A DNA stretch of 64,000 nucleotides from Clostridia bacterium (GTDB lineage: Bacteria > Bacillota > Clostridia > Oscillospirales > CAG-272). The stretch lies in the NCBI GenBank assembly GCA_017537175.1, contig JAFYLH010000011.1:323-64322 (forward strand), given 5' to 3'. Within the stretch, counting starts at the first letter, position 1; each line of letters starts with the position of its first letter. A model generated the notes under the pieces. It was not told the DNA's origin and did no database searches. It saw only the letters and a program-made list of their open reading frames with translations. Both the position numbers and the translations under genes were made by a program. Shown in pieces: positions 8,434-62,787 of the stretch.

Positions 8434-9633
8434 CTACCAGGCGCGGTTTATGTCAAGACCGTCCTGCTGGATGTCCTCTGCGCTGTGAGTACCGTCAAAC
8501 TCCTCAGTAGAGTTGTAAACGGCATTAATTGTAGAGTCGTTTAAGATGGTAAAATTGAAGTCTGCATCAAATACATTCTCGGGAATATCCTCGTTGAATA
8601 CATTAAAGCTCTCGTTTGCTACCTTGTACATTGCCGCCCTGTGGATTACCACATATGAGCCGCCGTAGTATGTAACGGGGGTGTTGGGGGCGGTAAACAT
8701 AGTAATGTTTGAGAAATCCATCTGCATTGCTTCCTTAACAAAGTAAGCGGCATCGTTGACCGAAAGGGAGTGCTCAAGATTGCCCATAATAGTTGTGACT
8801 ACCGGTACAACATTTGTAATGGATATCTTATTCTTAAAGGACTCCATAAATGCTGTCATAAACAGCTTCTGTGCGTCCTGACGACCCAAGTCGCCGTTTA
8901 CATAGCTTGAACGGAAGCGGACAAACTGCTCTGCCATATCACCGTCAAGCGTCTGCTGACCCTCATAAAGGTCGATATAAAGAGGGGGATTCTGATATTC
9001 GTCGGTATAATACATACGGTAGGGAACATACATATCAACACCGCCGATGGCATCTACTATTGCACCAAAGCCGTCAAGGTTCATATATGCGTAGTAGTCT
9101 ATGTTGATTGCAAGATTGGAGCTTAAGGTCTGTGCAAGACCCTTCATACCGTCTGCTATCTTTCCGTCTGTATCTGTTTCGGAGGATGAATTATAGAATG
9201 TTCCGAATACGGAATTCAGCTTTCTTGGAGTACCGTCAACTGTGATAAAGGTATCACGGGGCATCTGCATAATGGTCATAGAATCATTTTTTAGATCAAG
9301 ATTAATGATCATCATAACATCGGTGTTCAAAGCAACTGCATCACGGCCAACTACAAGGAAATTGAAGGATTCATCCTCACGACCGCTTGTGGACAGAGAA
9401 TCACCGTTGCTGTCTACAATATTTTCCTGCCAGGGGGCAACCGATTGAACTGTAGGCTTGTTTATAAACAGGCCTGAAATATAATTAATGATACCCGGTA
9501 ATGTTAAACCTGCTGAAAACGCTGTTACGCCGACCAATGTAATGATCGAAAGGGTCAGTATAACAATAAGTGTAATTATAAGGGGCTTTGCGCTGTTATG
9601 CTTTTTGTTTTTAGGAATTCTTGTTTTACTCAT
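8434..9633 (-). CDS. LCP family protein (LytR-CpsA-Psr cell-envelope phosphotransferase)
   Basis: N-terminal TM anchor followed by FNFLVVGRD...DVMMIINLD...MPRDTF blocks typical of the LytR_cpsA_psr domain. Confidence 0.85.
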   Translation of the reverse strand: MSKTRIPKNKKHNSAKPLIITLIVILTLSIITLVGVTAFSAGLTLPGIINYISGLFINKPTVQSVAPWQENIVDSNGDSLSTSGREDESFNFLVVGRDAVALNTDVMMIINLDLKNDSMTIMQMPRDTFITVDGTPRKLNSVFGTFYNSSSETDTDGKIADGMKGLAQTLSSNLAINIDYYAYMNLDGFGAIVDAIGGVDMYVPYRMYYTDEYQNPPLYIDLYEGQQTLDGDMAEQFVRFRSSYVNGDLGRQDAQKLFMTAFMESFKNKISITNVVPVVTTIMGNLEHSLSVNDAAYFVKEAMQMDFSNITMFTAPNTPVTYYGGSYVVIHRAAMYKVANESFNVFNEDIPENVFDADFNFTILNDSTINAVYNSTEEFDGTHSAEDIQQDGLDINRAW

Positions 9634-44364: not shown

Positions 44365-44411
44365 GTATACATATATTATTTCAGATTTTAACTTAAAGAA
44401 AGGTGATAAAA

Positions 44412-47399
44412 ATGCTTGAGTTAAAAGGTATCGTAAAAAACTATACATCCGGCGATGAAACCGTTATGGCTCTTCGCGGGATCGATCTGCAGTTCAGACG
44501 CAACGATTTTGTATCTATTCTCGGACCGTCAGGCTGTGGCAAGACAACATTGCTCAATATCATCGGCGGTCTTGACCAATATACAAGAGGTGACCTTATA
44601 ATTGACGGTGTATCCACCAAGAACTATAAGGACAGAAATTGGGACTGCTACCGTAATCATAAGATAGGATTTGTGTTCCAGAGCTATAACCTCATCCCCC
44701 ATCAGAGTGTTCTTTCCAATGTTGAGCTGGCATTGACCTTGTCCGGTGTTTCAAAGGCAGAACGCAGAAAAAGGGCAAAGGAAGCCCTCTGTAAGGTTGG
44801 TCTGGGAGACCAGTTGAAAAAGCGCCCCAATCAGATGTCGGGCGGACAGATGCAGAGAGTTGCAATTGCAAGGGCATTGGTAAACGATCCCGATATTATC
44901 CTTGCCGATGAGCCTACAGGTGCTCTTGATACCGAGACCAGTAAGCAGGTTATGGAGATCTTAAAGGAAATATCCAAGGACCGTCTTATCATTATGGTTA
45001 CCCATAACCCCGATATTGCAGAGGAATATTCAACCCGAATTATCCGTATGCTTGACGGTTGTATCACATCTGATACCAATCCCCTGAGCGATGAGGAAAA
45101 GGCTGCTTTTGTTACAAACCAAAAGCCTAAGAAGGAAAAGATGCCCTCTATGTCCTTAGTTACATCCTTTAAGCTTTCCCTCAAAAACCTGTTTACAAAG
45201 AAGGGAAGAACCATACTTACCTCCTTTGCCGGCTCTATAGGTATCATAGGCATTGCGCTTATTCTGTCTGTGTCACAGGGTACTACGGCGTATATCAATT
45301 CTATACAGGAGGAGACCCTTTCCTCTTATCCCCTTACCCTTGAGGCTTCTACTATGGAGCTGGGCACTATTATGGAGACATTTATGAATGTATCCGCAGA
45401 GTCCTCTGCTCACGATAAGGATAAGGTATACAAAAAAGAGGCGGTTGTTGACATAGTAAATGCTATGAACGCTCTTGAAGAGACCGAAAATGACCTTTTC
45501 AGCTTTAATGAGTATCTTCTTTCAGAGCTTGAGGATGAGGACAGTAAGCTCAATGAGGCTGTTAACGGAGTTCAGTATTCCTATGACCTTGATATGCTCA
45601 TATATACCGAAAATGTTGAGGGTGAAATAATCCACACCGATACAGAGGATTTTATGGCAAAGATCATGAGCGAGTATATCGGTATGGATGTAAATGCTAT
45701 GGAATCTATGATGGGTAACAGCAGTCTTGCATCTATGAGTACTATGAGCTCTTCAAACATCTGGCAGGAGCTTCTGCCCGGCAAGGACGGCTCTGCTGTC
45801 AATGATCTGCTGTTTAACCAGTATGACCTTGTATATGGCGACTGGCCTAATGATTACGATGAAATAGTTATAGTTCTTGACAGAAACAACGAGCTTGACG
45901 ATGTATCTCTCTATGCTCTCGGTCTTATACCACAGGAGCGTATGGATAAGATGATAGATGCCACAATGAAGGGCGAGCATATCGAAAATCTCTCTCAGAG
46001 CTGGAGCTATGAAGAGATATGTGAACGGGAGTACAAGACTATTCTCAATTCATCCTGTTATACCTATGATGAGACAACGGGCACCTATAACGATCTTCGC
46101 GATACCGATGCGGGGCTCCGCTACCTTTATAACAGCGCTGACAGTACACTTTCTCTTAAGGTTACCGGTATAATCCGCCCCAATGAAGAGTGCTCTTCGC
46201 CTATGCTTAAGGGCAGTATCGGATATACACACGCACTTACCGAGTTTGTAATAGAACAGGCAAAGGATGCCGATGTTATAAATGCTCAGTTAGATTCACC
46301 CGATACAGATATACTTACAGGTCTGCCCTTTAAGCCCGAAAACGGTGAAATGACCGATGCTGAAAAGAAGACCGAATTCCTTGCTTATCTCGATACCTTA
46401 GGTGATGCAGAAAAGGCGCAGACTTATATTGCAATAAAGTCTATTCCCGAGCCTGAATTTGTACAGGAGCAGATAAACGGTATTCTTTCCTCCATGACCC
46501 GTGAGGACATTGAAGCACAGCTTATAGAGGGCATGTCCTCTCAGGTGAGTGTTTCTCAAAAGGAAATTACAGATTATCTTGCTTCTATGACCGACGAGGA
46601 ACTCAACAAGACATTTGCGATGATCATGGAGGAGCAGATCAAGCTTCAGTATGCACAGGGTGTGGTTGCTCAGATGGCATCAGTTCCCGCCGAGCAGCTG
46701 CTTATGGCTCTTACCGCAGAGCTTGAGACCTATACCGATGAGCAGTTTGGCAGATATTATGATGAGATAATCACCTTCTCCGAGACTACCTATGAGGATA
46801 ATCTTGTTAAGATGGGTTATCTTGATCTTGATAGACCCTCTGCCATCAATATTTATGCTTCTTCCTTTGAAAATAAGGATATAATAACCGATGCTATAGA
46901 AGCCTATAACAATACTGTTGATGAGGCTTATCGGATCAAATATACCGACTATATAGGAATTCTGATGAGCTCAATCACACTGATCATCGATGCCATAACC
47001 TATGTTCTTATTGCCTTTGTTGCTATTTCACTTATAGTTTCTTCCATTATGATAGGTGTAATTACACTCATATCGGTACAGGAGAGAACAAAGGAGATCG
47101 GTATTCTCAGAGCTATTGGTGCTTCAAAGCGTAATGTTGCAAGAATGTTCAATGCCGAAACGATGATAGTAGGCTTTATATCAGGTGTCTTTGGTGTTGT
47201 GATAACAGCACTTCTCTGCATACCTATAAACGCAATTCTCTTTGCGCTGACCGATATTGCAAATCTTAAGGCTCAGCTGCCCTTGGCTGCGGCAATAATC
47301 CTTGTGGTGATAAGCGTTGCGCTTACCCTTATCTCGGGTATCATCCCCTCAAGAAGTGCTGCAAAGAAGGATCCTGTGGTTGCGTTGAGAACCGAATAA
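44412..47399 (+). CDS. Fused ABC ATPase + FtsX-type permease (MacB-like) with a very large extracytoplasmic domain
   Basis: GPSGCGKTT, MSGGQMQRVAIARAL and ILADEPTGALD lie in aa 1-225. TM1 is near aa 275-295, followed by a domain of about 570 aa. The C-terminal FtsX-type 3-TM bundle is marked by QERTKEIGILRAIGASK. Confidence 0.85.
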   Translation: MLELKGIVKNYTSGDETVMALRGIDLQFRRNDFVSILGPSGCGKTTLLNIIGGLDQYTRGDLIIDGVSTKNYKDRNWDCYRNHKIGFVFQSYNLIPHQSVLSNVELALTLSGVSKAERRKRAKEALCKVGLGDQLKKRPNQMSGGQMQRVAIARALVNDPDIILADEPTGALDTETSKQVMEILKEISKDRLIIMVTHNPDIAEEYSTRIIRMLDGCITSDTNPLSDEEKAAFVTNQKPKKEKMPSMSLVTSFKLSLKNLFTKKGRTILTSFAGSIGIIGIALILSVSQGTTAYINSIQEETLSSYPLTLEASTMELGTIMETFMNVSAESSAHDKDKVYKKEAVVDIVNAMNALEETENDLFSFNEYLLSELEDEDSKLNEAVNGVQYSYDLDMLIYTENVEGEIIHTDTEDFMAKIMSEYIGMDVNAMESMMGNSSLASMSTMSSSNIWQELLPGKDGSAVNDLLFNQYDLVYGDWPNDYDEIVIVLDRNNELDDVSLYALGLIPQERMDKMIDATMKGEHIENLSQSWSYEEICEREYKTILNSSCYTYDETTGTYNDLRDTDAGLRYLYNSADSTLSLKVTGIIRPNEECSSPMLKGSIGYTHALTEFVIEQAKDADVINAQLDSPDTDILTGLPFKPENGEMTDAEKKTEFLAYLDTLGDAEKAQTYIAIKSIPEPEFVQEQINGILSSMTREDIEAQLIEGMSSQVSVSQKEITDYLASMTDEELNKTFAMIMEEQIKLQYAQGVVAQMASVPAEQLLMALTAELETYTDEQFGRYYDEIITFSETTYEDNLVKMGYLDLDRPSAINIYASSFENKDIITDAIEAYNNTVDEAYRIKYTDYIGILMSSITLIIDAITYVLIAFVAISLIVSSIMIGVITLISVQERTKEIGILRAIGASKRNVARMFNAETMIVGFISGVFGVVITALLCIPINAILFALTDIANLKAQLPLAAAIILVVISVALTLISGIIPSRSAAKKDPVVALRTE

Positions 47400-48786: not shown

Positions 48787-48815
48787 TTGTAATGATTAAA
48801 ATAATATGATATAAT
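48787..48815 (+). promoter_or_regulatory. Promoter of the thioesterase - YgjP - ABC operon
   Basis: TTGTAA - 17 nt - TATAAT with TGa extended -10. The ORF-track start at 48814 lies inside the -10 element. Confidence 0.6.
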
Positions 48816-48843
48816 GTTAATAATACAATTTTTGGAGGATATT

Positions 48844-49224
48844 ATGTTAGAGCTTGGACTTAAAAATACAAAAGAAGTTATCTGTGATGAAAATAATACT
48901 GCAGCCGCTGTAGGTAGTGGTAGTCTTAGGGTGTTTTCCACGCCGGCTCTTTTGACCTTAATGGAGCTTTGTGCCGCAGAGTGTGTTCTGCCTTATCTTG
49001 AGGATGGTCAGTCAACCGTTGGTACAAAGGTTGAGCTTAAGCATATTGCCGCAACTCCCGTAGGAATGACTGTTAAGTGTGAGTGTGAGCTTACAGAGAT
49101 CGATCGCAGAAGATTGGTATTTGATATCAAGGCATATGACCAAAGAGAGCTTGTAGGTGAGTGTAAGCACGAGAGATTTATCGTCAACAATGATAAGTTC
49201 CTTGATAAGTGTTATTCTAAATAA
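48844..49224 (+). CDS. Hotdog-fold thioesterase family protein
   Basis: VGSGSLRVFSTPALLTLME and HIAATPVG pattern of the fluoroacetyl-CoA-thioesterase-like family. ATG at 48844 follows ggagg. Confidence 0.7.
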   Translation: MLELGLKNTKEVICDENNTAAAVGSGSLRVFSTPALLTLMELCAAECVLPYLEDGQSTVGTKVELKHIAATPVGMTVKCECELTEIDRRRLVFDIKAYDQRELVGECKHERFIVNNDKFLDKCYSK

Positions 49225-49739
49225 TGTCCTATAGACTGATCCGTTCTAAAAGAAAGAGTATTTCAATTGAGATATCACCCGAGCTTGAGGTCATTGTCAG
49301 AGCACCTTTGTATATGAAGCAAAGGGATATCGACAAATTTGTTTATGACCACAGAGAGTGGATCATAAAGCACACAGAGCTCAGAAAGCAGAGATTGGCA
49401 AACAGACCCAAAGAGCCTACATTACAAGAGATAGCCGACCTTAAACTCATGGCAAAGGAAATATTGCCACTTAAGGTCGATTATTTTTCGGATATAATGG
49501 GTGTAGATGTTAAATCTGTAAAGATAACATCTGCAAAGAAGAGGTTGGGCAGCTGTTCTGCTGATAACGGTATTTGCTTTTCCTACAGGGTAATGATGTA
49601 TGATAATGACATAATCGATTATGTGGTCATACATGAGCTCGCTCACATAATTGAGCATAACCATTCTAAAAGATTTTACGATACTGTCAGAAAATACTGT
49701 CCCGATTATAAGGACAGGGAAAGGAGGATAAAGTGGTAA
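49224..49739 (+). CDS. YgjP-like metallopeptidase (DUF45 / M48-WLM-like)
   Basis: HELAHIIEHNHSKRFY HExxH motif at the position typical of DUF45 proteins. Confidence 0.8.
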   Translation: MSYRLIRSKRKSISIEISPELEVIVRAPLYMKQRDIDKFVYDHREWIIKHTELRKQRLANRPKEPTLQEIADLKLMAKEILPLKVDYFSDIMGVDVKSVKITSAKKRLGSCSADNGICFSYRVMMYDNDIIDYVVIHELAHIIEHNHSKRFYDTVRKYCPDYKDRERRIKW

Positions 49740-52021
49740 GCTTTGATAAGATCCCGTCATATATTACCGAGGTTTTTACCGATAAAGGAATAGATAACAT
49801 ATACCTTATGGCATATTGCGATATGGATAATGAGCACATATACTGTGATACCTACATTGCTCTTACCAAGGATATGCTCTATGTGACAAGCGGAACGGTT
49901 ATCCTTGAGCCAAAGGATAAGGGCAAGGGACTTGATTCCTTCTGGAAGGAAAAATCATTTGCAGGCTACAGTATAGATAGCATAGAGTCCCTGAAAGTAG
50001 AGGAACTTCTCTCCAGCGCAAGACTTACCGCTAAAACCTCAGACGGAGAGTATATCTTCCTTTCTGCAATGACTAATTTTTGTAAGGGAAACTGCAATCT
50101 CTTTGTAAAATACTTTGGCAAGATCAAAAAAGGTGATATTGTTTCGCCAGATTTTGAGATAGACAGTGAGGATGACCCCAAGAATAATTGTTGTCCAAAA
50201 TGCGGAATGCGTTATCCCGACAAAAACCGCAAGGTTTGTCCCAAATGTATGGAAAAGGGAAAGCTCTTTTCAAGATTTGGCGTATTTCTTTTAAAATACA
50301 AGATGGAAATGCTTATTCTGTTGATTTCGCTTGTGTTTCTTACAGGTACAAGTATTCTTATTCCGTACTTTTCCAACGGCTTTTTCTATGATAAGATCCT
50401 TGACGAAAGCGGCAGTCTTTACGGTCAGATACTGTTAGCTTTGGGCATTATTATTGCTACGAAGCTCTTGTCTGTGTTTGCAGATATGATCAACGGTTAT
50501 ATATCCACAAAGATAGCAACAAAGGTGGTATACGATTTAAAAAATACCATATTCGGTGCTATAGAACGCTTGTCTCTGAGCTTCTTTAACGGAAGACAGA
50601 CCGGCGGTCTTATGACACAGGTGAACGATGACTCCAACACTATCTACGGCTTTTTCTGTGACGGAATTCCGTATTTTCTTATAAATATAGTTCAGGTAGT
50701 GGTCCTCTGTGTTATTCTGTTTATAATGAACCCTCTGTTGGCGTTGCTTTCATTGAGCACTATTCCCGTGTTTTATTTTGTACTTCGCCGTACATATTCA
50801 GTATCCCGTAAGCTTCATACCCATCATTATTCGGGGGTAAGACGCATGAATTCTCAGCTTTCGGATGTGCTTGGCGGTATCCGCGTAGTTAAGGCGTTTG
50901 CCAAGGAAAACGAGGAGAGCCAACGATTCCACAAGAGTAACAGGATCGCCGCCGCAAGTAACCGTAAGCTTGCTCTTTTCAATAACTATGTATATCCGTA
51001 CATCGGAGTGATTCTTTATTTCGGTAATGTGATTGCCCTGGGCGTGGGCGGATATATGGTAATGAGCGACCGTTTTGCCTTTACATACGGTGATCTTATT
51101 ACCTTTACTGCATATATCAATATGATATACAGCCCTATGTATTTCTTCTCTCATATGATAGACTGGACGGCAAGTACATCAAATTCACTTCAAAGACTCT
51201 TTGAGATTTACGATACCGAGCCTGATATCACAGAGAAGGCGGATGCGGTGACTCTTGAAAATATCGAGGGTAGAGTTGAATTCCGTTCGGTGGATTTTGG
51301 ATATTCAAAGACCAAAAAAGTCATAGACAATGTAAGCTTTGAGATTGAAGCACAGCATATTCTCGGTATTGTCGGACATACGGGCGCAGGAAAAAGCACT
51401 ATTGCCAATCTTATTATGCGCCTTTATGATACCGATGAGGGAGGCGTTTATATTGACGGTGTCAATGTTAAGGAGCTCAGCTTTAAATCTCTTTATGAAA
51501 ATATTGCCATAGTTTCTCAGGAAACATACCTGTTTATTGGCTCTATACTTGATAATATCAGATACGCCAGACCCGATGCCTCATATGAGGAGGTCATCTA
51601 TGCCGCAAAATGCGCCGGTGCGCATGATTTTATCATCAAGCTTCCCGACGGATACAATACTATGATAGGCTTTGGCCACAAGGATCTTTCCGGTGGAGAA
51701 AGACAGCGTGTTTCTATTGCAAGAGCTATATTGCGCGATCCAAAGATACTCATTCTTGACGAGGCAACCGCCGCAATGGACACCAAGACCGAAAAGATGA
51801 TCCAGACTGCGCTTTCTTCTCTTACCAAGGGTAAGACCACCATTATGATAGCTCACCGTCTTTCCACTCTTCGCGATGCCCATAAGCTTATAGTAATAGA
51901 AAACGGCAGGGTCGCAGAGCAAGGAACTCACAAGGAGCTTCTTGATATTGAGGACGGAGTATACAATAAGCTTTATACCCTGCAGCTTGATGCATTGAAG
52001 AATGCAGGAATAACGGAGTAA
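49733..52021 (+). CDS. ABC exporter half-transporter (TMD+NBD) with an N-terminal extension of about 185 aa (PH-like region + zinc ribbon)
   Basis: GTG start 6 nt after aaggagg (49721-49727), overlapping the ygjP stop. CCPKCG...CPKC (nt 50189-50248) lies just before TM1, followed by six TM helices. NBD motifs are GHTGAGKST, LSGGERQR and ILILDEAT. Confidence 0.85.
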   Translation: MVSFDKIPSYITEVFTDKGIDNIYLMAYCDMDNEHIYCDTYIALTKDMLYVTSGTVILEPKDKGKGLDSFWKEKSFAGYSIDSIESLKVEELLSSARLTAKTSDGEYIFLSAMTNFCKGNCNLFVKYFGKIKKGDIVSPDFEIDSEDDPKNNCCPKCGMRYPDKNRKVCPKCMEKGKLFSRFGVFLLKYKMEMLILLISLVFLTGTSILIPYFSNGFFYDKILDESGSLYGQILLALGIIIATKLLSVFADMINGYISTKIATKVVYDLKNTIFGAIERLSLSFFNGRQTGGLMTQVNDDSNTIYGFFCDGIPYFLINIVQVVVLCVILFIMNPLLALLSLSTIPVFYFVLRRTYSVSRKLHTHHYSGVRRMNSQLSDVLGGIRVVKAFAKENEESQRFHKSNRIAAASNRKLALFNNYVYPYIGVILYFGNVIALGVGGYMVMSDRFAFTYGDLITFTAYINMIYSPMYFFSHMIDWTASTSNSLQRLFEIYDTEPDITEKADAVTLENIEGRVEFRSVDFGYSKTKKVIDNVSFEIEAQHILGIVGHTGAGKSTIANLIMRLYDTDEGGVYIDGVNVKELSFKSLYENIAIVSQETYLFIGSILDNIRYARPDASYEEVIYAAKCAGAHDFIIKLPDGYNTMIGFGHKDLSGGERQRVSIARAILRDPKILILDEATAAMDTKTEKMIQTALSSLTKGKTTIMIAHRLSTLRDAHKLIVIENGRVAEQGTHKELLDIEDGVYNKLYTLQLDALKNAGITE

Positions 52022-52024
52022 AAT

Positions 52025-52540
52025 ATGTCAAATGAAATTGTAAAGGAAGGCGCGGCAAATATAGTCCGCCTTGATAAGAATAATTCATCCTTTGGTATGA
52101 AGAACGGCTTTCTTTGTGCAAAGAAGGATGATGAAGGCTATGACAGAGTGTTTCTTCACAGAACATTCCCCTTTGATAAGCCTTGGGAATATATTTCTGT
52201 TATAGATCCTGATAATAATGAGATCGGTATTATATACAGTATCTCGGATTATGATGCCAAAACAGAGGAGCTGCTTCGTACAGAGCTCTGCCGTAAATAC
52301 TATGAGCCCCGTGTAAAAAGCATTGTTTCTCTTAAGGAAAGATACGGCTTTTCTTACTGGGTGATAATCACAGAAGAAGGCAGACGGGTTTCTCTTACAA
52401 TGCAGGATACCTTCAGAAACATCATCCGTATCGGTGATGACAAAGCCGTACTGCTTGATGTTGACGGTAACCGCTTTGTGATTGAGTCTATATCAGGCCT
52501 TGATAAAAAAAGCCACAGAAAGATCGAACTGTATATTTGA
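52025..52540 (+). CDS. DUF1854-like protein (171 aa)
   Basis: FLHRTFPFDKPWEYISVID...NEIGII...ELCRKYYEPRVKSI...DVDGNRFVIESISGLDKKS matches my recollection of the DUF1854 family, which is typically encoded next to ABC exporters. This was not verified by search. Confidence 0.55.
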   Translation: MSNEIVKEGAANIVRLDKNNSSFGMKNGFLCAKKDDEGYDRVFLHRTFPFDKPWEYISVIDPDNNEIGIIYSISDYDAKTEELLRTELCRKYYEPRVKSIVSLKERYGFSYWVIITEEGRRVSLTMQDTFRNIIRIGDDKAVLLDVDGNRFVIESISGLDKKSHRKIELYI

Positions 52541-52548
52541 GTTGTAAT

Positions 52549-54693
52549 ATGTCAAATAAAGAATTATTATGTAAGTTTCCCTTTGAGCTTCATCCCCTTA
52601 TACCCGACAGACGTTGTGACGGTTCTGTAGAGTTCAGTTCCGATTCCCTTGATGTCATAATTGATGGAGAGGTCTATATGTCTGTTGATACAGACGATAT
52701 ATCCGAGTTTATGATCGATAACGGTGTGGGATGCATATTTGTATCCTACAGGGCAAAGGATGGAAGCGTTCATCTTGTGTGCAGAAGCGATGTGAAGTAT
52801 TCAAAGGGTATTTCAAAGCAGGTGCGACGCCTTAATCACTATCTTGAGGATGCTGTGATGCCGCCCTTTTATGATAAGGGTGACAAATGTCCCAAGTGCG
52901 GCAGGCCCTACAGACCCGGATCTCATATATGTCTGCATTGCCAGGATAAGAAAAAGCTGCTGTTCAGAACCTTTAAGCTCTTTTCAAGATATAAGCTGTA
53001 TATGTTTATCGCCATAATACTCTTTTTTGCGGTAAGCGGACTATGTCTTGTTATACCTTATCTCAACAGAATAGCTGTCGATAACTATATCAAGAGTGAG
53101 GATCCTGTAAATATCGGTGGTTATGCACTTGTGATCCTGTCAATACTTGCCCTTGAAATTTTCATCAGGAGTATATCAAATATAAGATACCATGTTCTGA
53201 TCGCGGCAAGCAATAAGATGATCGTAGGGCTTAGAAACGAGCTTTTTGATAAGATAGAAAAGCTGTCCCTTGGTAATATTTCAAAGCGAAACACAGGCGA
53301 TCTTATGCGCCGTGTAGGATGGGATACCCATATATTGCAGAACTTTATCATTAACTATCTACCTAATATACTGGAGCAGATAGTTGTGTTTATTGCAGTA
53401 GCGATCTATATGCTCGTATATGATCCCATGCTGTTTGTAATGGTAGTTCTGCCCACCCCCTTTGTTGTTATATCCTTCAGACTGTTCTGGAAATCCATGA
53501 GAAATCTCTTCCATAAAAGATGGCTTGCGGCTTCTAAAACAAACTCAATATTACACGATATCTTTTCGGGTATAAGGGTTGTAAAATCCTTTGGTATGGA
53601 GCATAAGGAGTCAAAGCGCTTTGAGGAGGGAACTGCTGAAGAAAAGCGTATGCAGGAGATAACCGATATCCGCTGGAGCTTTATCATGCCTGTGCTCAGG
53701 TTTTTTATCGGCTTTGGAGAATTTGTGATCCTCTATTATGTAGGAAACCGTATCATCGGAAATACTATGAGTCTTGGCGAAATGGCTCAGTTCTCTTCGT
53801 ATACCGCAATGATATACGGTCCACTGCGTATGATAGCCCAAATCCCCAGAAGATGGATGGAGTTTTCCACCTCCTCTGCAAAGGTCTTTGAGATCTTGGA
53901 CGAGGAAGTTGATGTATCGGATAAGGACAAGGCTGTAGATATCGATATTAAAGGCAGGATAGATATAGACAATGTTTCCTTTGGCTATGACAGCGGTACA
54001 GAGGTGCTTCATAAGATCAATATACATATTGAGCCGGGTGAGTTTATCGGTTTGGTTGGTGCTTCAGGTGTAGGTAAATCGACACTTATCAACCTGATAA
54101 TGCGTATGTATGATGTTGAGAACGGCTCTATTACCGTCGACGGAGTTGATATTCGTGATATATCCCAAGAGTCACTTCGTTCTCAGATAGGCGTGGTTCT
54201 GCAGGAGACCTTCCTGTTTTCGGGTACGGTATATCAGAACATTGCCTATGCTAAGCCGGATGCCACTCGTGATGAGGTCATTGCTGTCTCAAAATTAGCA
54301 GGCTGTCACGACTTTATATGCCGTATGCCGGACGGATATAACACAAGGGTTGGCGAAAGAGGCTCTACACTTTCGGGTGGAGAGAGACAACGCGTTGCTA
54401 TTGCAAGAGCGTTGCTTCACGACCCTAAGATACTTATCCTCGATGAGGCGACTGCCTCTCTTGATACCGAGACCGAAAAGCAGATACAGGATGCTTTAGC
54501 CAAGCTTTCGGCACAGCGGACAACTATCGCCATAGCTCACCGATTGTCCACTCTTCGTAATGCCACAAGGCTTGTTGTGCTCGATAAGGGCAGGGTAGCA
54601 GAGGTAGGCAACCACGATGAGCTGATGGCTAAAGAGGGTATATATTACGGTCTTGTTATGGCACAGCGCGAAATGTCAAATATGGATAACTAA
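52549..54693 (+). CDS. ABC exporter half-transporter (TMD+NBD) with an N-terminal extension of about 145 aa (PH-like region + zinc ribbon)
   Basis: CPKCG...CLHC (nt 52888-52941) lies just before TM1. NBD motifs are GASGVGKST, LSGGERQR and ILILDEAT. The start is ATG 52549 or TTG 52537 (overlapping the upstream stop), with no clear RBS, so translational coupling is likely. Confidence 0.85.
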   Translation: MSNKELLCKFPFELHPLIPDRRCDGSVEFSSDSLDVIIDGEVYMSVDTDDISEFMIDNGVGCIFVSYRAKDGSVHLVCRSDVKYSKGISKQVRRLNHYLEDAVMPPFYDKGDKCPKCGRPYRPGSHICLHCQDKKKLLFRTFKLFSRYKLYMFIAIILFFAVSGLCLVIPYLNRIAVDNYIKSEDPVNIGGYALVILSILALEIFIRSISNIRYHVLIAASNKMIVGLRNELFDKIEKLSLGNISKRNTGDLMRRVGWDTHILQNFIINYLPNILEQIVVFIAVAIYMLVYDPMLFVMVVLPTPFVVISFRLFWKSMRNLFHKRWLAASKTNSILHDIFSGIRVVKSFGMEHKESKRFEEGTAEEKRMQEITDIRWSFIMPVLRFFIGFGEFVILYYVGNRIIGNTMSLGEMAQFSSYTAMIYGPLRMIAQIPRRWMEFSTSSAKVFEILDEEVDVSDKDKAVDIDIKGRIDIDNVSFGYDSGTEVLHKINIHIEPGEFIGLVGASGVGKSTLINLIMRMYDVENGSITVDGVDIRDISQESLRSQIGVVLQETFLFSGTVYQNIAYAKPDATRDEVIAVSKLAGCHDFICRMPDGYNTRVGERGSTLSGGERQRVAIARALLHDPKILILDEATASLDTETEKQIQDALAKLSAQRTTIAIAHRLSTLRNATRLVVLDKGRVAEVGNHDELMAKEGIYYGLVMAQREMSNMDN

Positions 54694-54725
54694 GAGAATG
54701 GCTGTAATTTTACAGCCATTCTCTT
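54692..54725. terminator. Perfect 15-bp bidirectional hairpin between convergent genes
   Basis: aagagaatggctgta / tacagccattctctt with 4-nt loop. It begins inside the ABC stop codon (54691-54693), and its right arm encodes the last codons of the minus-strand gene. Confidence 0.8.
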
Positions 54726-55144
54726 ATATCTATTGCTAATTTTTCTTCCAGGTTGATCAGCCGCTTGGTTATATCCTTTGATACCTCGTCGGCAGCCTTG
54801 TACTGATTGAGATATCTGTTAAGTGACTTTACCCCCATGTTGCAGCCGTCTGTCATCAGGTCTGCAACTGTTGAATCCTTGTCCTTGAGGTCAAGCATAA
54901 TATTTGTTTTCATCCAGGACATACCCTTTGCAATGGGGTTGGGGTCTTTGCCGTCATCCTCGTATTTTTTCAGTAAACTGTCGATCTCGCGATCCAGCTT
55001 TTCGTGCTCGCTTCTGCAATCGGCAAGCAGCTTGCGGAACCTTTCGTCCTTTATGTGATCAATGACCTCTGTGATGGAATCAACACCCATTTTTACTCCT
55101 GCATCGCATTCACGAAGCAACTTTATCGTATCTTTTTCAATCAT
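54710..55144 (-). CDS. Hypothetical helical protein (144 aa, probable four-helix bundle)
   Basis: Amphipathic helical repeats (ECDAGVKMGVDSI..., DGCNMGVKSLNRYL...) suggest a duplicated two-helix unit; no confident family assignment. Confidence 0.5.
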   Translation of the reverse strand: MIEKDTIKLLRECDAGVKMGVDSITEVIDHIKDERFRKLLADCRSEHEKLDREIDSLLKKYEDDGKDPNPIAKGMSWMKTNIMLDLKDKDSTVADLMTDGCNMGVKSLNRYLNQYKAADEVSKDITKRLINLEEKLAIDIREWL

Positions 55145-55176: not shown

Positions 55177-56526
55177 TCATATTTGTCTCTTTTTATTCCT
55201 GTATACAAAAAAGAATGCTATCATCTGTATCAAAAAGGTAACAAGCCAGGATACAGTATAAGAGAAGTACAGACATCTTGGTGTATGGAACTGCTCGATT
55301 TGGAATATCGTATATATCCATGTTATTCTTATACCGCAAACACCTAAGACTGATATTATCATAGGCACAAGAGATGCGCCCATTCCTCGCAGAGCTCCTG
55401 TTGATACATCCATTAATCCGCATATGAAGTAGGGAAGACATATCATACTCATACGGATAATGCCGTAGGTGATGGCTTCCTTTGAATCTGTAATATATAT
55501 CGAAAGAAGCTGAGGCGAAAGCGCATATGCCGTTCCTCCAAAGACGATTCCCGTTACAGATACAAGTATGAGGCAGTAGAGCAGTATTTTTGAAACTCTT
55601 TTGAATTTCTTTGCTCCTGCGTTCTGACCTATATAATTTACTGCTGTCTGGTGAAAGGCGTTAAGGGTTACATAAACAAAACCTTCTATATTTCCCGCCG
55701 CGGCATTTCCTGACATTACAACATCGCCAAAGGAATTGACAGATGACTGAATTATAACATTGGAGATAGAGAACAGCGAGCCCTGTATTCCCGCAGGCAG
55801 ACCAATACGCAGTATCTTTATGAGCTGTGCCTTGTATATCCTCATTTTTTTAAGCTCAAGACGGCAGGCATCCTTACGGCGCATAAGAGCAATGACTACA
55901 AGGATAGCAGATATGCCCTGGGATATGGTTGTTGCAAGAGCAACTCCTTCTACATTCATATTACATGCAGTTACAAAGATTACATTCAAAATAACATTGA
56001 TAATGCCGCTGGCTGTCAGGTATATAAGGGGAGATTTGGTATCTCCGGCCGCACGGAGTATGGATGCGCTGAAGTTATATACCATATTAAAGGTTATGCC
56101 TGCAAAATATATCTTCATATACAGAGCTGATAAGGGCAGAACATTATCAGGTGTGTTCATTAAAGAAAGCAAAGGCTCGGCAAGAAGAACACCGACAACA
56201 GTCAGTATTATACCGCTGATAATTGATGCCGGAATGGCTGTGTGTACTGTCTTATGTACCTCTGCATCCTTTTTTGCGCCTATTGCGTGGGCAACACTTA
56301 CACCTGCGCCTACTGACAAACCGATGAATAGGTTTACTATAAGCATCGTGATAGATCCCGTTGCGCCGACAGCGGCTACACTCAGGCTTCCGCGAAAACG
56401 CCCCACTATAACAAGGTCAGCCGCGTTAAAGAGAAGCTGCAATATGCTTGTAAGGATTATTGGAATCGTATAAAGAATTAAATTGTTAAACAGAGGTCCC
56501 TCTGTCATACTCTTGGTTTTAGTCAT
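55177..56526 (-). CDS. MATE family efflux transporter
   Basis: 12-TM protein starting ...MTEGPLFNNLILYTIPIILTSILQLLFNAADLVIVGRF, the typical MATE N-terminus. Start MTKTKS was chosen, though 56568 is also possible. Confidence 0.85.
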   Translation of the reverse strand: MTKTKSMTEGPLFNNLILYTIPIILTSILQLLFNAADLVIVGRFRGSLSVAAVGATGSITMLIVNLFIGLSVGAGVSVAHAIGAKKDAEVHKTVHTAIPASIISGIILTVVGVLLAEPLLSLMNTPDNVLPLSALYMKIYFAGITFNMVYNFSASILRAAGDTKSPLIYLTASGIINVILNVIFVTACNMNVEGVALATTISQGISAILVVIALMRRKDACRLELKKMRIYKAQLIKILRIGLPAGIQGSLFSISNVIIQSSVNSFGDVVMSGNAAAGNIEGFVYVTLNAFHQTAVNYIGQNAGAKKFKRVSKILLYCLILVSVTGIVFGGTAYALSPQLLSIYITDSKEAITYGIIRMSMICLPYFICGLMDVSTGALRGMGASLVPMIISVLGVCGIRITWIYTIFQIEQFHTPRCLYFSYTVSWLVTFLIQMIAFFFVYRNKKRQI

Positions 56527-56744
56527 TTTTATGTACCGAATGCTATTGAAGTGTTTGTATATTTTCAAAGTATATTATATCACTACAGATTAATATTGGC
56601 AAGCATAAAGTTATGAAAAAGTAACGCGGTATATTTACAAATTATACATAATCTATTGCAAAATTAAGGATTATATGTTACCATTATAAGAGAATAGTAT
56701 GCAAACTGCTTATTACTATAATTGAGGAGGTCGTATACCGGTTA

Positions 56745-58337
56745 ATGTGTGACCGGGTCTTTTACGGAATGTACGATATGGAAGACAAAATTACTGATGC
56801 TTTGGAAGAGTCTGACGAGATTGTTGCCGAAGAAGTCGTTTCGGTGATTGAAGAACAAGATGCTGATAATGTTAAACAGTCAGCAGAGTATAAAGAATTT
56901 GAGCAGAAGCTTGCCGATGTCGGTGAGGATTACGACGCTTTGGTAGATTTCTATAATAATATTGATACTCAGCTTGAGCCCGAGCTTTATGAGTGCTGCA
57001 AGGAAGTGGCTAAAACTAAGCTTTGCGAGGTTCAGAGATCTTGTTTGGATGCTGTTATTTCTGATGCAGCCGCTATGGCCTGTCAGGAGATCCGAACCGC
57101 GATAGCTGAGGCGGACAGATACGGCTTTGATGAAAAGATCCTTGCGGACGCAAAGCTTAAGCTTGATAAATTACTGGATATATCTGAGCACAAGGTCCTT
57201 TCTGATTTCTGTTCCAAAATTGATACAATCGGTATACCTGAGATCTTTGAATTCAGGGCTATGCTCGAGAGTGAAGGCTTCAAGCACGAAAATGTATCGC
57301 GTTATACAAGTAAGATAAATGACAGATATTGGACTATTATTTATAAGGAATCCTGCGCTAAGTGTAAACAGAGTGTAGTGCATGAGCTTGTACGGGATGA
57401 AGTCGCGGCGAATGATCTTATCTCCTGCTTTGAAAAATGCGGTGTATCCCCCTACAAGGTTGCCGCTTATACAACCAGAGTTAAAAATGTATTTGAATTA
57501 CGCAAGGAATATGACAATGTAAGGACTCCCATTGTAAATGAGATCCGTGAAAAATCCTTGCAGTTTGTGGGCGGTATCATTGAAAAGGACATTAGCTCCA
57601 GCTCTGTAAGCTGTATTGAACCGGATATCTTTATATGCGATGATGCTGCAATAAGACAGCATTTGGTATCTGATCCGTTCAACTCTCTTTACATTGACGA
57701 AGAAATACCGCTGTTATATATGTACAGATACGGTTACGATGATAACTCGACGCCTGTTTTCAGTATAACAAATGAGGCGATGTATTTCCCTTGTGAGGAT
57801 GAAGAACAGCCTTATATCAGAATACCCTTTGAAAATATCGGTGATATCAGGGCGGCGGTAACCACAGGTGAGGTGTATATTTGCTATGATGATGCATCTG
57901 TGATTATACAAACCGAGCTTCCTTATAAGGTTAGAGTACTCCTTGGTACAGCTATTCGCAAAATAGCTGACTATCTCATAGATTCAAAGAGAAAGAACCA
58001 AACATTGCTTGATTCCCTGAGATATGAATATGACCGTAATCTTGCGCTGCTGTTTAAGAAGTATCCTATACCCAACGATGACATCTATTCCTTTGAAAAG
58101 CCTCAAAGTTTGATCGACCTGCAGACTGCTCTGGAAAGCTCCGAACCCTGGGTATGTAAGTGTGGTAAGGTAAACAAGGGTAATTTCTGCAGTCAGTGCG
58201 GTACTAACAAAGATGAGGGTATAATTGAATGGACATGCGACTGCGGAACTGTTAACAGAGCTAATTTCTGTACATCTTGCGGTGGGCCCAGACCTCAGAA
58301 TGACGAAAATGAAGAAACTGTCGATATAATTGAATAA
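56745..58337 (+). CDS. Hypothetical 530-aa protein: acidic N-terminus, helical middle, PH-like region, two C-terminal zinc ribbons
   Basis: WVCKCGKVNKGNFCSQCG and WTCDCGTVNRANFCTSCG lie at nt 58149-58286. The start is uncertain (ATG 56745 lies 14 nt after gaggagg; ATGs at 56769 and 56778 are also in frame). A terminator follows. Confidence 0.6.
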   Translation: MCDRVFYGMYDMEDKITDALEESDEIVAEEVVSVIEEQDADNVKQSAEYKEFEQKLADVGEDYDALVDFYNNIDTQLEPELYECCKEVAKTKLCEVQRSCLDAVISDAAAMACQEIRTAIAEADRYGFDEKILADAKLKLDKLLDISEHKVLSDFCSKIDTIGIPEIFEFRAMLESEGFKHENVSRYTSKINDRYWTIIYKESCAKCKQSVVHELVRDEVAANDLISCFEKCGVSPYKVAAYTTRVKNVFELRKEYDNVRTPIVNEIREKSLQFVGGIIEKDISSSSVSCIEPDIFICDDAAIRQHLVSDPFNSLYIDEEIPLLYMYRYGYDDNSTPVFSITNEAMYFPCEDEEQPYIRIPFENIGDIRAAVTTGEVYICYDDASVIIQTELPYKVRVLLGTAIRKIADYLIDSKRKNQTLLDSLRYEYDRNLALLFKKYPIPNDDIYSFEKPQSLIDLQTALESSEPWVCKCGKVNKGNFCSQCGTNKDEGIIEWTCDCGTVNRANFCTSCGGPRPQNDENEETVDIIE

Positions 58338-60681: not shown

Positions 60682-62787
60682 ATGGCTATTCTTAGATGTA
60701 AGTCGTGTGGCGGTCCGCTGGATGTAAAAGAAGGGGATAAGATTGTGGAATGTTCATATTGCAATCTGCAGCAAACTATTCCGACGATTGACGATGACTT
60801 TAAATTCCAAATGTTCAATCAGGCTAATGATCTTAGGCGTCAGTTTGATTTTGACGGTGCTAAAGCATTTTTACAGGCAATTATTTCAAGGCATCCGGAG
60901 GAATCGGAAGCTTATTGGCATATCTGTCTGTGCAAATATGGTATTATGTATGTCGAGGATCAACAGACATATACACAGATACCTACCTTTTACAGAATGA
61001 TACCTCAGAGCATATTGTCTGACGAAGATTATCTTAAAGCATGCAAATATGCCGGTGTCGCTTCCTGGAAATATGAGGATGAAGCGAAAAAAATTGAGAA
61101 ATTACAAAAAAAGATTTTTGATTTGTCAAACAGCGAAGATCCGTATGATATATTTATTTGTTATAAAAAGACTGATATAGATACAGGCTTACAAACCGAG
61201 GATAGCAAAATTGCGGCTCAGATCTACATGAAGCTCATAGAAAACGGTTACCGGGTATTTTGGGCAGAGCGTTCTCTTCCTGCCGGTTGTGAGTACGAAC
61301 CGTACATTTATGCGGCACTGTCTACAGCAAAAATTATGTTGGTGTTAGGTAGTGATAAGCGTTATTTTGAAGCTCCTTGGGTTAAAAATGAGTGGATTCG
61401 TTTCCTCGATATGATGAGCAGAGATTCAGGCAAATCCATTATGACCTGTTATAAGAATATTACTGCGGATGACATTCCATCTAATTTAAAGAACCTGCAG
61501 GCCTTGGATATGACCAACATGCTCTTTTCAAGTGATTTGTTGGAGCGAATTCAAAAGAAGATTCCCAAGAAGAAAGAAATGCCGTCTGACGATTTGCTGA
61601 ATGCATTTAAAATCTTCCAGGCAAACAATCCAAACGAATCTATCCAAAATAAAGAAATAGCCTTCAATGACGGTGTGTATTCGGGTGAAGCAATTGCAGG
61701 AAAACCCCATGGATACGGTATATATCATTATTCGAATGGCGTTAGATACGAAGGAAATTGGAGTGTTGGTAAAAGGCATGGACAGGGAACAGCGTTCTTT
61801 AATAACGGCGATACCTGGACTGGTGAATGGAAGGATAACATCCCATATAACGGTAGTGGAGCTTATCATTTTATAAAGGACAATACAACAAAATGTTTTG
61901 GTGGTGTCTTAAAAAACGGTAGACTTTACGGTGAAGGAAAGTCTTATGTTAATGGGCAGGTTTTATATGAAGGATATTTTGAAAACGGAATTTTGAACGG
62001 TCAGGGTACTGCTTATACAAACGGAGTATCCTGTACAGGTGAGTTCCGTCAAGGCAGGCCTTGGAACGCCAAAGGAACATTTTCATTGAATCTAAAAAGA
62101 CCGGCTATATTTAATGGTGAATGGGTCAACGGCCTTCCGCACGGTTTTGGTATAATTCAGTTTAATGATAAAAATGACAGTGTTGAAGGTTATTTCAACA
62201 ATGGTTTGAATGGAGATGTATTTTGGTATTTTTCAGACGGACGGCATTATGAAGGAGAGATCAGTAATTGTGCGTTATCCGGACAAGGAAAAATGTTTTC
62301 AAAAAATGATACTTTGATATACGAAGGAAGCTATGCTAACGGCAATGCTAACGGTTACGGTACTTATTATGTAAACTCTTCCGAAAGATATGAAGGTGAA
62401 TTTCTCAACGGCAAATACAACGGACAGGGTACATATTTTTATCCTCAAGGCACATGGACAGGTGTATGGAAGGACGGCCAGCGCTGGACGGGACAAGGTA
62501 TGATATTTTTCTATGATGATAACGGTAAACAAACAGGCAAGTTTTTTAATGGACATATGCTGAACGGTGTTGCTTCGGGCAAAGGTATTTTAAGGCAAGC
62601 AGACGGAACACGCTTCGACGGTGAATTTTTCAATGACCGTTATTATAATGGTACAGTATATAATGCAAAGAACCAGGTTACAGATACATATGTTAAAGGC
62701 GAGAGTCAACAATTAAAAGCACACAAACGCAATCAGGCTATCGCAGGTACGGCATTTGACATTCTTAAGGGGCTTTCCCGTTTCTGA
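60682..62787 (+). CDS. Zinc-ribbon / TIR-domain / MORN-repeat protein (701 aa)
   Basis: CKSCG...CSYC at aa 6-27. YDIFICYKKTD ... APWVKNEW (aa ~154-285) is a TIR-like block. About 14 YxGxWxxGxxxGxG MORN units span aa ~331-680. caggag RBS lies 7 nt upstream. Confidence 0.85.
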   Translation: MAILRCKSCGGPLDVKEGDKIVECSYCNLQQTIPTIDDDFKFQMFNQANDLRRQFDFDGAKAFLQAIISRHPEESEAYWHICLCKYGIMYVEDQQTYTQIPTFYRMIPQSILSDEDYLKACKYAGVASWKYEDEAKKIEKLQKKIFDLSNSEDPYDIFICYKKTDIDTGLQTEDSKIAAQIYMKLIENGYRVFWAERSLPAGCEYEPYIYAALSTAKIMLVLGSDKRYFEAPWVKNEWIRFLDMMSRDSGKSIMTCYKNITADDIPSNLKNLQALDMTNMLFSSDLLERIQKKIPKKKEMPSDDLLNAFKIFQANNPNESIQNKEIAFNDGVYSGEAIAGKPHGYGIYHYSNGVRYEGNWSVGKRHGQGTAFFNNGDTWTGEWKDNIPYNGSGAYHFIKDNTTKCFGGVLKNGRLYGEGKSYVNGQVLYEGYFENGILNGQGTAYTNGVSCTGEFRQGRPWNAKGTFSLNLKRPAIFNGEWVNGLPHGFGIIQFNDKNDSVEGYFNNGLNGDVFWYFSDGRHYEGEISNCALSGQGKMFSKNDTLIYEGSYANGNANGYGTYYVNSSERYEGEFLNGKYNGQGTYFYPQGTWTGVWKDGQRWTGQGMIFFYDDNGKQTGKFFNGHMLNGVASGKGILRQADGTRFDGEFFNDRYYNGTVYNAKNQVTDTYVKGESQQLKAHKRNQAIAGTAFDILKGLSRF

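Follow-up and report, generated by a model that had tools for sequence, protein, structure and literature searches.

A DUF1854-linked ABC exporter cassette with predicted PH-like and ribbon-bearing N-terminal extensions in Clostridia

ATP-binding cassette (ABC) exporters that are encoded together with a protein of the DUF1854 family (Pfam PF08909) are abundant and have no solved structure, and the single published clue to their function is cofitness with cphA. In the β-proteobacteria Acidovorax and Cupriavidus, DUF1854 was found to be cofit with the adjacent ABC transporter and with cphA/cphA'; export of an amino-acid polymer was proposed, and rare ABC-DUF1854 fusions, noted by the Pfam curators, were mentioned (Price et al., bioRxiv 10.1101/072470). 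For cyanophycin itself there is no known export process (Sharon et al. 2023, PMC9974463). The work of Price et al. is the sole paper mentioning DUF1854/PF08909 in the searchable literature, in which no description of a PH or zinc-ribbon N-terminal domain on an ABC exporter was found. Both partners are also catalogued by NCBIfam equivalog models, namely NF052233 (cyanophycin metabolism-associated ABC transporter) and NF052234 (DUF1854). Considered here is a relative of this system from a Clostridia bacterium (assembly GCA_017537175.1, contig JAFYLH010000011.1, positions 323 to 64,322), within a stretch of 64,000 nucleotides that is referred to throughout as the window. It is a cassette of three adjacent genes, encoding a first half-transporter (ABC-1), a soluble DUF1854 protein and a second half-transporter (ABC-2), in which both transporter proteins begin with a cytoplasmic extension, predicted to be PH-like, that is followed by a four-cysteine ribbon (Table 1).

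The half-transporters, their extensions and the DUF1854 protein

ABC-1 and ABC-2 are both predicted to be half-transporters of the ABCB-like (type IV) exporter fold, with two ATP sites that look competent by motif. Each covers PF00664, the family of the transmembrane domain (TMD), over its full length (profile 1-274 of 274) and each contains PF00005, the family of the nucleotide-binding domain (NBD); in ABC-1 these correspond to residues 193-469 and 532-680, respectively. As a first, sequence-only reading of the window had stated, the Walker A, LSGGE signature, Walker B glutamate and H-loop histidine are canonical in both NBDs. They are kept in all 112 ABC-1 orthologues and in 105 of 111 ABC-2 orthologues, and the ribbon and ATPase motifs are retained in more than 94% of these 223 proteins. 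The two halves share 37% identity from the ribbon onwards (residue 150 of ABC-1 and 114 of ABC-2), and no similarity is found by BLAST on the N-terminal side of it. The closest solved relatives by sequence are Sav1866, TM287/288, TmrAB, MsbA and ABCB1/4/11, which align only from residue ~177-194 of ABC-1 and ~126-141 of ABC-2. The extensions thus lie outside any solved relative.

The first extension, ext-1, was modelled with AlphaFold2 as residues 1-202 of ABC-1 with 17 homologues. The model has a mean confidence (pLDDT) of 86.1 over the 202 residues, with values of 84-95 per 10-residue block between residues 11 and 140, and beyond the helix at 115-133 it continues through a lower-confidence ribbon region into the helices of the elbow and of the first transmembrane segment (TM1). 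When the model was compared with the PDB by Foldseek, all of the top matches were PH domains (GRK2, TBC1D23, BRAG2, SIN1, NF1/neurofibromin and Rtt106); the best E-value is a modest 5.5e-4, and the target-normalised TM-score for isolated PH domains is 0.50-0.64. In this model ext-1 is a PH-like fold, in which a seven-stranded antiparallel sandwich is closed by a C-terminal helix. A sequence search of the PDB with ext-1 gave nothing significant, and no PH-like Pfam family occurs among the matches listed for the extension region in the window proteins and their homologues.

The second extension, ext-2, is the shorter of the two. A BLASTP comparison with ext-1 matched the ribbon alone, and hhalign with shallow profiles was not significant. 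Deep profiles, built from ~40-80 orthologues, align residues 30-136 of ext-1 with residues 15-104 of ext-2 (E = 1.6e-5, probability 79%, 89 columns), on which basis ext-2 may be regarded as a trimmed paralogue of the PH-like domain, ext-1 bearing an additional hairpin of 18 residues. The earlier suggestion of a PH-like, beta-rich stretch in both halves has therefore held up, for ext-1 through the AlphaFold2 model and Foldseek and for ext-2 through its homology to ext-1. The extensions are the fastest-evolving parts of their proteins; over 38 loci, identity to the protein of the window averages 0.51 for ext-1 and 0.42 for ext-2. Word-indexed searches with the extensions alone recovered just 17 and 1 relatives, which understates their spread, so that recovery by gene context was needed.

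Such long N-terminal additions raise the question of whether they are untranslated leaders that have been drawn in by over-long calls of the open reading frames (ORFs), and the longest ORF of ABC-2 does begin at a TTG that has no clear Shine-Dalgarno sequence. Moving this start to the ATG at 52549 costs just four residues. The GTG start of ABC-1 is preceded, at a spacing of 5 nucleotides, by a strong AGGAGG Shine-Dalgarno sequence and ext-1 is conserved in orthologues, which together mark it as coding rather than as an artefact of start calling. Across about 160 loci the protein sequence of both extensions is conserved, and the gene callers of public assemblies give the same ABC lengths. With this conservation and the confident fold prediction for ext-1, the explanation by mis-called starts is refuted and its likelihood is practically nil.

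Between the extension and TM1 lies the ribbon, which consists in each half of two CxxC knuckles that are 10-11 residues apart. The sequence-only reading had placed a CPKCG...C..C ribbon immediately before TM1 in both halves, and the motif is not only present there but also conserved, with all four cysteines kept in 110 of 112 ABC-1 and 106 of 111 ABC-2 orthologues. In the ABC-1 orthologues TM1, taken as the first long hydrophobic stretch, begins 18-20 residues past the ribbon, and the intervening segment is basic and amphipathic and occupies the position of an elbow helix. Ribbon-1 and the elbow together have a mean identity of 78% to the window protein over the same 38 loci, which is close to the 82-84% of the NBD. 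Weak zinc-ribbon-type Pfam matches are found (Zn_Ribbon_1, DZR and HypA, with zf-ChsH2 for ribbon-2), and matches of this type occur in 13-14 of 18 homologues. Both ribbons are described here as zinc-ribbon-like. By sequence, none of the solved ABC exporters reaches into the extension, which agrees with the earlier remark that a ribbon of this kind at the membrane interface has no known counterpart among characterised type-I exporters. The novelty that had been attached to the extensions stands as far as solved structures are concerned, but does not extend to sequence models, since NF052233 already spans a homologous N-terminal domain and ribbon.

The 171-residue protein encoded between the two transporters had been described as DUF1854-like, and the assignment is secure, its match to PF08909 lying well above the gathering threshold and aligning residues 39-168 with positions 1-128 of the 130 in the profile. 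An AlphaFold2 model (pLDDT 87.8) contains two beta-rich halves, each of which ends in a helix. A sequence search of the PDB gave nothing significant. The family is large, with 1,583 clusters at 50% identity recovered by an exhaustive HMMER search (E <= 1e-3), and it is under strong constraint: 35 positions are invariant in 48 homologues, and motifs of the FP, KE.YG.SYW and D.DGNR type persist family-wide. No match was obtained by tblastn against a plasmid collection. A derivation of the extensions from DUF1854, or of DUF1854 from tandem ext-like domains, was considered and rejected for lack of any hhalign signal, and a tandem PH-like nature of DUF1854, which would have only a pattern of secondary structure behind it, is not claimed. 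Some DUF1854 variants are longer, at 230-260 residues (P0146, P0148, P0161, P0169, and those at positions 8677-9408 of locus L155 and 8707-9402 of locus L157), and the first four of these match the family profile in two separate segments, as would be expected if the domain contained an insertion.

Distribution of the cassette and the cyanophycin-associated branch

Six DUF1854 homologues examined in context all lie between an ABC gene of ~760 codons and one of ~715-740 codons. A scan of species-representative genomes gave at least 307 with a confirmed DUF1854 relative, the best 80 of which, those inspected, all belong to uncultured gut Clostridia (under Oscillospiraceae, Acutalibacteraceae and Eubacteriales labels) from ruminant or other animal guts. 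The cassette was then censused with hidden Markov models (HMMs), counting only loci with 2.45 kb or more of sequence on either side of DUF1854. In a close set the three genes, in the order ext1-ABC, DUF1854 and ext2-ABC, are adjacent and on one strand in 70 of 70 non-redundant loci. In a more distant set, which was collected with DUF1854 subgroup A4 and in which many contig names come from the Ga0123355/Ga0123353 sample series, the cassette is found in 23 of 24 loci with full flanks; the genes are adjacent in 21 of these and separated by inserted genes in two, and the remaining locus (L159) has a single ABC gene. A metagenome scan with another DUF1854 representative, P0258, found nothing. This recurrence is far beyond chance and it bears out the expectation that homologous transporters carry both the extensions and the intervening gene, with DUF1854 acting as an obligate partner of the extended ABC protein to which it is at times fused. 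The two loci with insertions, L100 (9553-12311) and L124, have about 2.8-3.5 kb between DUF1854 and ABC-2, which in L100 contains three extra ORFs of 139, 169 and 528 residues, so the tight cassette tolerates interruption.

Two other arrangements qualify the earlier statement that DUF1854 is habitually encoded beside ABC pairs, which holds for these Clostridia although single-ABC and fused forms exist elsewhere. Locus L159 (6621-9375) has one ribbon-bearing ABC protein of 758 residues together with DUF1854 and no second ABC; it is probably the unduplicated, ancestral form. The second arrangement is represented by four natural fusions of 935-1013 residues, which came from the DUF1854 search (P0220, P0221, P0268 and P0280) and which run, in order, through an N-terminal domain, a CPxCG…CPxC ribbon, TMD, NBD, a linker and DUF1854. 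The ext-1 HMM matches two of the four, at 7e-18 and 9e-13. As DUF1854 follows the NBD in these proteins, it can be placed on the cytoplasmic side of the membrane.

This distribution bears on whether the cassette is simply a multidrug or lipid exporter of a generic kind, in which the extensions and DUF1854 would be structural or assembly accessories. The core is indeed closest to MsbA, Sav1866 and ABCB-type exporters, and a MatE efflux gene adjoins the cassette in the window and in several other loci. Against this stand the strict co-inheritance of the parts across hundreds of species, the natural fusions, a ribbon-1 and elbow that are almost as conserved as the NBD, and the many invariant residues of DUF1854, all of which argue for a dedicated and specific function and make the generic explanation very unlikely.

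Amongst the NCBIfam models the top match of both ABC halves is NF052233, with 486 bits for ABC-1 and 537 bits for ABC-2, exceeding the MsbA-like models by more than 100 bits in either case and yet falling short of the cut-off of 880 bits. The model has 766 positions, and ABC-1 and ABC-2 align to it from positions 132 and 120, which correspond to the ribbon, while the fusion P0280 aligns from position 19 and the ABC protein of L159 from position 36, so that the N-terminal domain is covered as well. Taken with the fusions, these alignments suggest that the PH-like domain and ribbon were already present in the ancestor of all DUF1854-linked ABC exporters, those of the cyanophycin branch included. 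For the DUF1854 protein the only meaningful NCBIfam match is NF052234, at 66.4 bits against a cut-off of 150, which is reached by none of ten distant DUF1854 representatives.

It could be argued from these matches that the cassette is an orthologue of the NF052233/NF052234 exporter, with cyanophycin or a related Asp/Arg polymer made by CphA as its cargo and with cphA situated elsewhere. The two models are the best NCBIfam matches, the domain architecture is shared, and there is the cofitness with cphA/cphA' (Price et al., bioRxiv 10.1101/072470). The scores, however, are far under the equivalog cut-offs, and the Clostridia have a duplicated pair in place of the single ABC protein described for the β-proteobacteria. 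No cphA is present among the large ORFs of the window, and around 89 loci no recurrent family of neighbouring ORFs is cphA-like; in the distant set of 73 loci the check covered YgjP, FlK and the proteins of the cassette, with the exception of L159, where a gene-by-gene inspection found Dxr, RseP, a TPR protein and peptidase A4 as neighbours and no cphA. Moreover, no process of export is known for the polymer (Sharon et al. 2023, PMC9974463). The low scores and the lack of any cphA linkage make cyanophycin export improbable for this branch, and judged from its sequences the window system is a related but separate branch from the cyanophycin-associated one.

The transcription unit and its neighbours

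The cassette appears to belong to a transcription unit of five genes, which are probably translationally coupled and which would be bounded by a predicted promoter and a strong hairpin (Table 1). The four tightly coupled genes that had been recognised between 49224 and 54693 were confirmed by the ORF listing and family scans, with a 7-nucleotide overlap between ygjP and ABC-1 and a 3-nucleotide gap between ABC-1 and DUF1854. The junction between DUF1854 and ABC-2 depends on the start of the latter, being an overlap of 4 nucleotides for TTG 52537, which gives a protein of 718 residues, and a gap of 8 nucleotides for ATG 52549. The ATG is the more likely start, as orthologue N-termini align with it. 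The idea that YgjP leads the unit survives in part, in that ygjP is present and coupled to ABC-1, but the unit begins one gene earlier, with a FlK-like thioesterase gene, and YgjP is not part of the core. The promoter-like site is directly 5' of this FlK-like gene, whose start codon is preceded by GGAGG at 48834-48838 and whose TAA stop overlaps the ATG of ygjP by 1 nucleotide. A longer FlK-like ORF (48814-49224) is over-called, as its ATG at 48814 falls within the -10 box, and the likely start is the ATG at 48844. At the other end of the unit the next gene, at 54710-55144, is on the minus strand and convergent.

Table 1. Features of the cassette and its immediate surroundings, in window coordinates.
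Feature	Position	Strand	Remarks
Promoter-like site	48787..48815	+	TTGTAA, 17-nt spacer, TG-extended TATAAT (TG precedes the -10 box); 10/12 consensus match, consensus match only
FlK-like hotdog-fold thioesterase, 126 aa	48844..49224	+	PF22636, E = 2.8e-38
YgjP-like zincin, 171 aa	49224..49739	+	PF01863, 146 bits, E = 1.9e-42 (threshold 26 bits); HELAH motif in translation (HExxH)
ABC-1 half-transporter, 762 aa	49733..52021	+	Order: ext-1, ribbon, elbow, 6-TM TMD, NBD
ext-1, PH-like domain (predicted)	49733..50137	+	Residues ~1-135: helix 9-17, seven strands 25-113, helix 115-133
ribbon-1	50192..50248	+	CPKC-x11-CPKC; Cys154, 157, 169, 172
DUF1854 protein, 171 aa, soluble	52025..52540	+	PF08909, 102.4 bits vs cut-off 26.8
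ABC-2 half-transporter, 714 aa	52549..54693	+	ATG 52549; order: ext-2, ribbon, elbow, TMD, NBD
ext-2, shorter PH-like paralogue of ext-1 (predicted)	52591..52860	+	hhalign homology to ext-1
ribbon-2	52888..52941	+	CPKC-x10-CLHC
Terminator-like hairpin	54691..54726	+	16-pair stem (6 GC), loop of 4; directly 3' of ABC-2 stop, between convergent genes

YgjP and FlK together are found upstream in just 6 of the 70 full-flank loci, all of them from the window's own clade, and in none of the distant set. YgjP lies directly upstream of ABC-1 in loci L001-3, L009-12, L019, L020 and L023 and is absent from the others. As the two accompany the cassette only in its closest clade, they are not considered core components and may have a clade-specific processing role. 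When the neighbouring ORFs were clustered, no other family was present in more than 18 of 89 loci, and the commonest families look RadA-like and SpoIVA-like by eye, which suggests synteny rather than function. An ORF of ~147 residues, MarR-like by eye, immediately precedes ABC-1 on the same strand in seven loci, among them L031 (5194-5676), and may act as a dedicated regulator within the clade concerned. An anti-phage defence role for the cassette was considered and rejected, since the PADLOC defence models gave generic ABC-ATPase similarity only (mad3, mad8) and no match for DUF1854, YgjP or FlK.

Several other genes of the window deserve mention. Upstream, at 44403-47399 (+), is a MacB-like fusion of an ABC ATPase with an FtsX permease (998 residues), and as a homologue of ~991 residues is found at the corresponding place upstream in L010-L012, the closest relatives, it is syntenic with the cassette in that clade. 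The MatE gene that adjoins the cassette is convergent with it (55177-56568, minus strand); it occurs in 10 of 89 loci and lies directly upstream of the cassette in several relatives (L004, L006 and L007), which is probably a matter of synteny. Further downstream, at 56745-58337 (+), a protein of 530 residues that belongs to no Pfam or NCBIfam family has a pair of CxxC…CxxC ribbons towards its C-terminus, WVCKCGKVNKGNFCSQCG and WTCDCGTVNRANFCTSCG; it has no match to the HMMs of ext-1, ext-2 or DUF1854, and no further ext-like or DUF1854-like domain was found elsewhere in the window. Finally, a protein of 701 residues at 60682-62787 (+) has a TIR_2 domain, MORN repeats and an N-terminal CxxC…CxxC at residue 7 and may be of a defence/NADase type.

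A candidate loading platform and its closest counterparts

ABC-1 and ABC-2 would be expected to pair as a heterodimer of the Sav1866/ABCB fold with two competent ATP sites, the fold also indicating outward transport. In each half the cytoplasmic PH-like domain would be fastened to the elbow helix by the presumed zinc ribbon, which would set it against the membrane, next to where the transport cavity opens to the cytoplasm, and DUF1854 would act as a soluble subunit from the same side. The two PH-like heads and DUF1854 may thereby form a platform for the recognition and loading of a bulky cytoplasmic cargo, for instance a peptide or an amino-acid polymer. The gating or substrate-delivery role that the sequence-only reading had proposed for these parts agrees with what was observed. 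The Clostridial pair would go back to one PH-ribbon-ABC gene that was duplicated and that in other lineages is still either alone with DUF1854 or fused to it. On balance, the system is probably a three-gene heterodimeric exporter with such a cargo-loading platform. What the analysis shows is the architecture, its conservation, the domain folds and the natural fusions, from which we infer complex formation, zinc binding, the direction of transport and a role in cargo handling.

In characterised exporters the cytoplasmic domains that directly precede TM1, such as the C39 domain of PCATs and the C39-like domain of HlyB, dock cargo, and this is one reason for preferring cargo loading to regulation. 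A second is that PH-like domains that evolve quickly on a rigidly conserved ribbon and elbow fit a variable recognition surface. A third is provided by the leaderless bacteriocin EntDD14, whose export by an ABC transporter depends on two PH-domain proteins, DdE and DdF (PMC8657885).

The main alternative to the loading platform is that the PH-like heads and DUF1854 serve as sensors of a membrane lipid or of a ligand in the cytoplasm and so gate the hydrolysis of ATP, in the manner of the trans-inhibiting domains of the MalK, MetN and ModC importers or of PH domains that read lipid head groups. PH-like domains are classic sensors of membranes and ligands, the ribbon puts them at the membrane surface, and the fusions tether DUF1854 to the C-terminus of the NBD, which is the usual site of regulatory domains in ABC proteins. 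The weak Foldseek matches of DUF1854 include small ligand-binding beta-domains of the Mop/ModE type, although these are not significant, and no known ligand-binding motif has been identified. The pre-TM1 domains of characterised exporters (C39 and the C39-like domain, CLD) are concerned with docking of cargo, and the cofitness of DUF1854 with polymer synthetases suggests a role in transport, though regulation would also yield cofitness. A regulatory function is accordingly regarded as possible, if on the unlikely side.

Several observations weigh against the loading platform and should be set beside it. No conserved cargo gene or polymer synthetase was found next to the cassette among 89 neighbourhoods, which is also what a regulatory role would predict, and cphA is absent from the window. 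That the PH-like domains evolve fast fits adaptation to cargo and fits a looser regulatory role equally well. The DUF1854 model has no significant Foldseek neighbour in the PDB (best E = 0.054), leaving its fold unclassified, and hhalign, with shallow as with deep profiles, detected no relationship of DUF1854 to the extensions. The assignment of ext-2 as PH-like runs through profile homology to ext-1 only, the AlphaFold2 confidence for the ribbon region of ABC-1 is moderate (pLDDT 63-70), and the binding of zinc by the ribbons is presumed from their cysteine pattern. Likewise, the proposed platform presumes that DUF1854, the ABC core and the PH-like domains are in contact.

The combination of DUF1854 with an extended ABC exporter is not categorically new, since Pfam and NCBIfam already list it and one fitness study drew attention to it. 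Three aspects appear to be undescribed in the searchable literature: the domain anatomy of a PH-like fold with a four-cysteine ribbon at the elbow, the universality of this anatomy across the DUF1854-linked clade, and the duplicated, heterodimeric form, independent of cphA, that is found throughout the uncultured gut Clostridia. The broader notion that the PH-like/zinc-ribbon/DUF1854 module defines a distinct and very widespread class of exporter, secreting a macromolecule made in the cytoplasm, is at present doubtful. If it is true, gut Clostridia export a novel polymer or peptide by a loading mechanism unlike that of any characterised ABC transporter, and with a polymer as cargo the system would provide the first dedicated means of export of a type that has been called unknown for cyanophycin (Sharon et al. 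2023, PMC9974463). Either way the module is a concrete structural and biochemical target, and it raises the question of what the dominant uncultured bacteria of the gut export.

Amongst bacterial heterodimeric exporters, the cassette resembles TM287/288, TmrAB, BmrCD and EfrCD, which are also encoded by adjacent paralogous TMD-NBD genes and share the type IV fold; TM287/288 and TmrAB are in addition among the closest solved relatives of the core. These transporters are without an N-terminal domain and an intervening gene, and one of their two ATP sites is degenerate, whereas both are canonical in nearly all orthologues of the present pair. The PCAT and HlyB-type exporters are likewise half-transporters of the same fold and have a cytoplasmic domain of ~125-150 residues directly before TM1, and HlyB and bacteriocin-type models are found among the NCBIfam matches to the window cores. 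The likeness is one of position only, in that the N-terminal domain here is predicted to be PH-like rather than papain-like as in C39, with no Peptidase_C39 match. The window system also has the ribbon as a link to the elbow and the additional DUF1854 protein, and it has no cargo gene, membrane-fusion protein or outer-membrane partner nearby.

The DdE/DdF proteins of the enterocin DD14 locus are comparable by function: there too PH-domain proteins cooperate with an ABC transporter in exporting a cytoplasmic peptide (PMC8657885), but the PH domains are in separate proteins and neither DUF1854 nor a ribbon is involved. The ABC-DUF1854 fusions combine a PH-like N-terminal domain, ribbon, TMD, NBD and DUF1854 in one chain. 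These single polypeptides are presumably homodimeric, so that an exporter would have two DUF1854 domains, in contrast to the three genes, two different halves and one DUF1854 gene of the window. A further counterpart is the NF052233/NF052234 system, which has an N-terminal domain of ~120-150 residues, a four-cysteine ribbon, a TMD-NBD core and an adjacent DUF1854 gene. The Clostridial system differs from it by its sub-cut-off scores and by the lack of cphA in the window and in the censused neighbourhoods, and also in its arrangement and host, two diverged ABC paralogues flanking DUF1854 in gut Clostridia rather than in β-proteobacteria.

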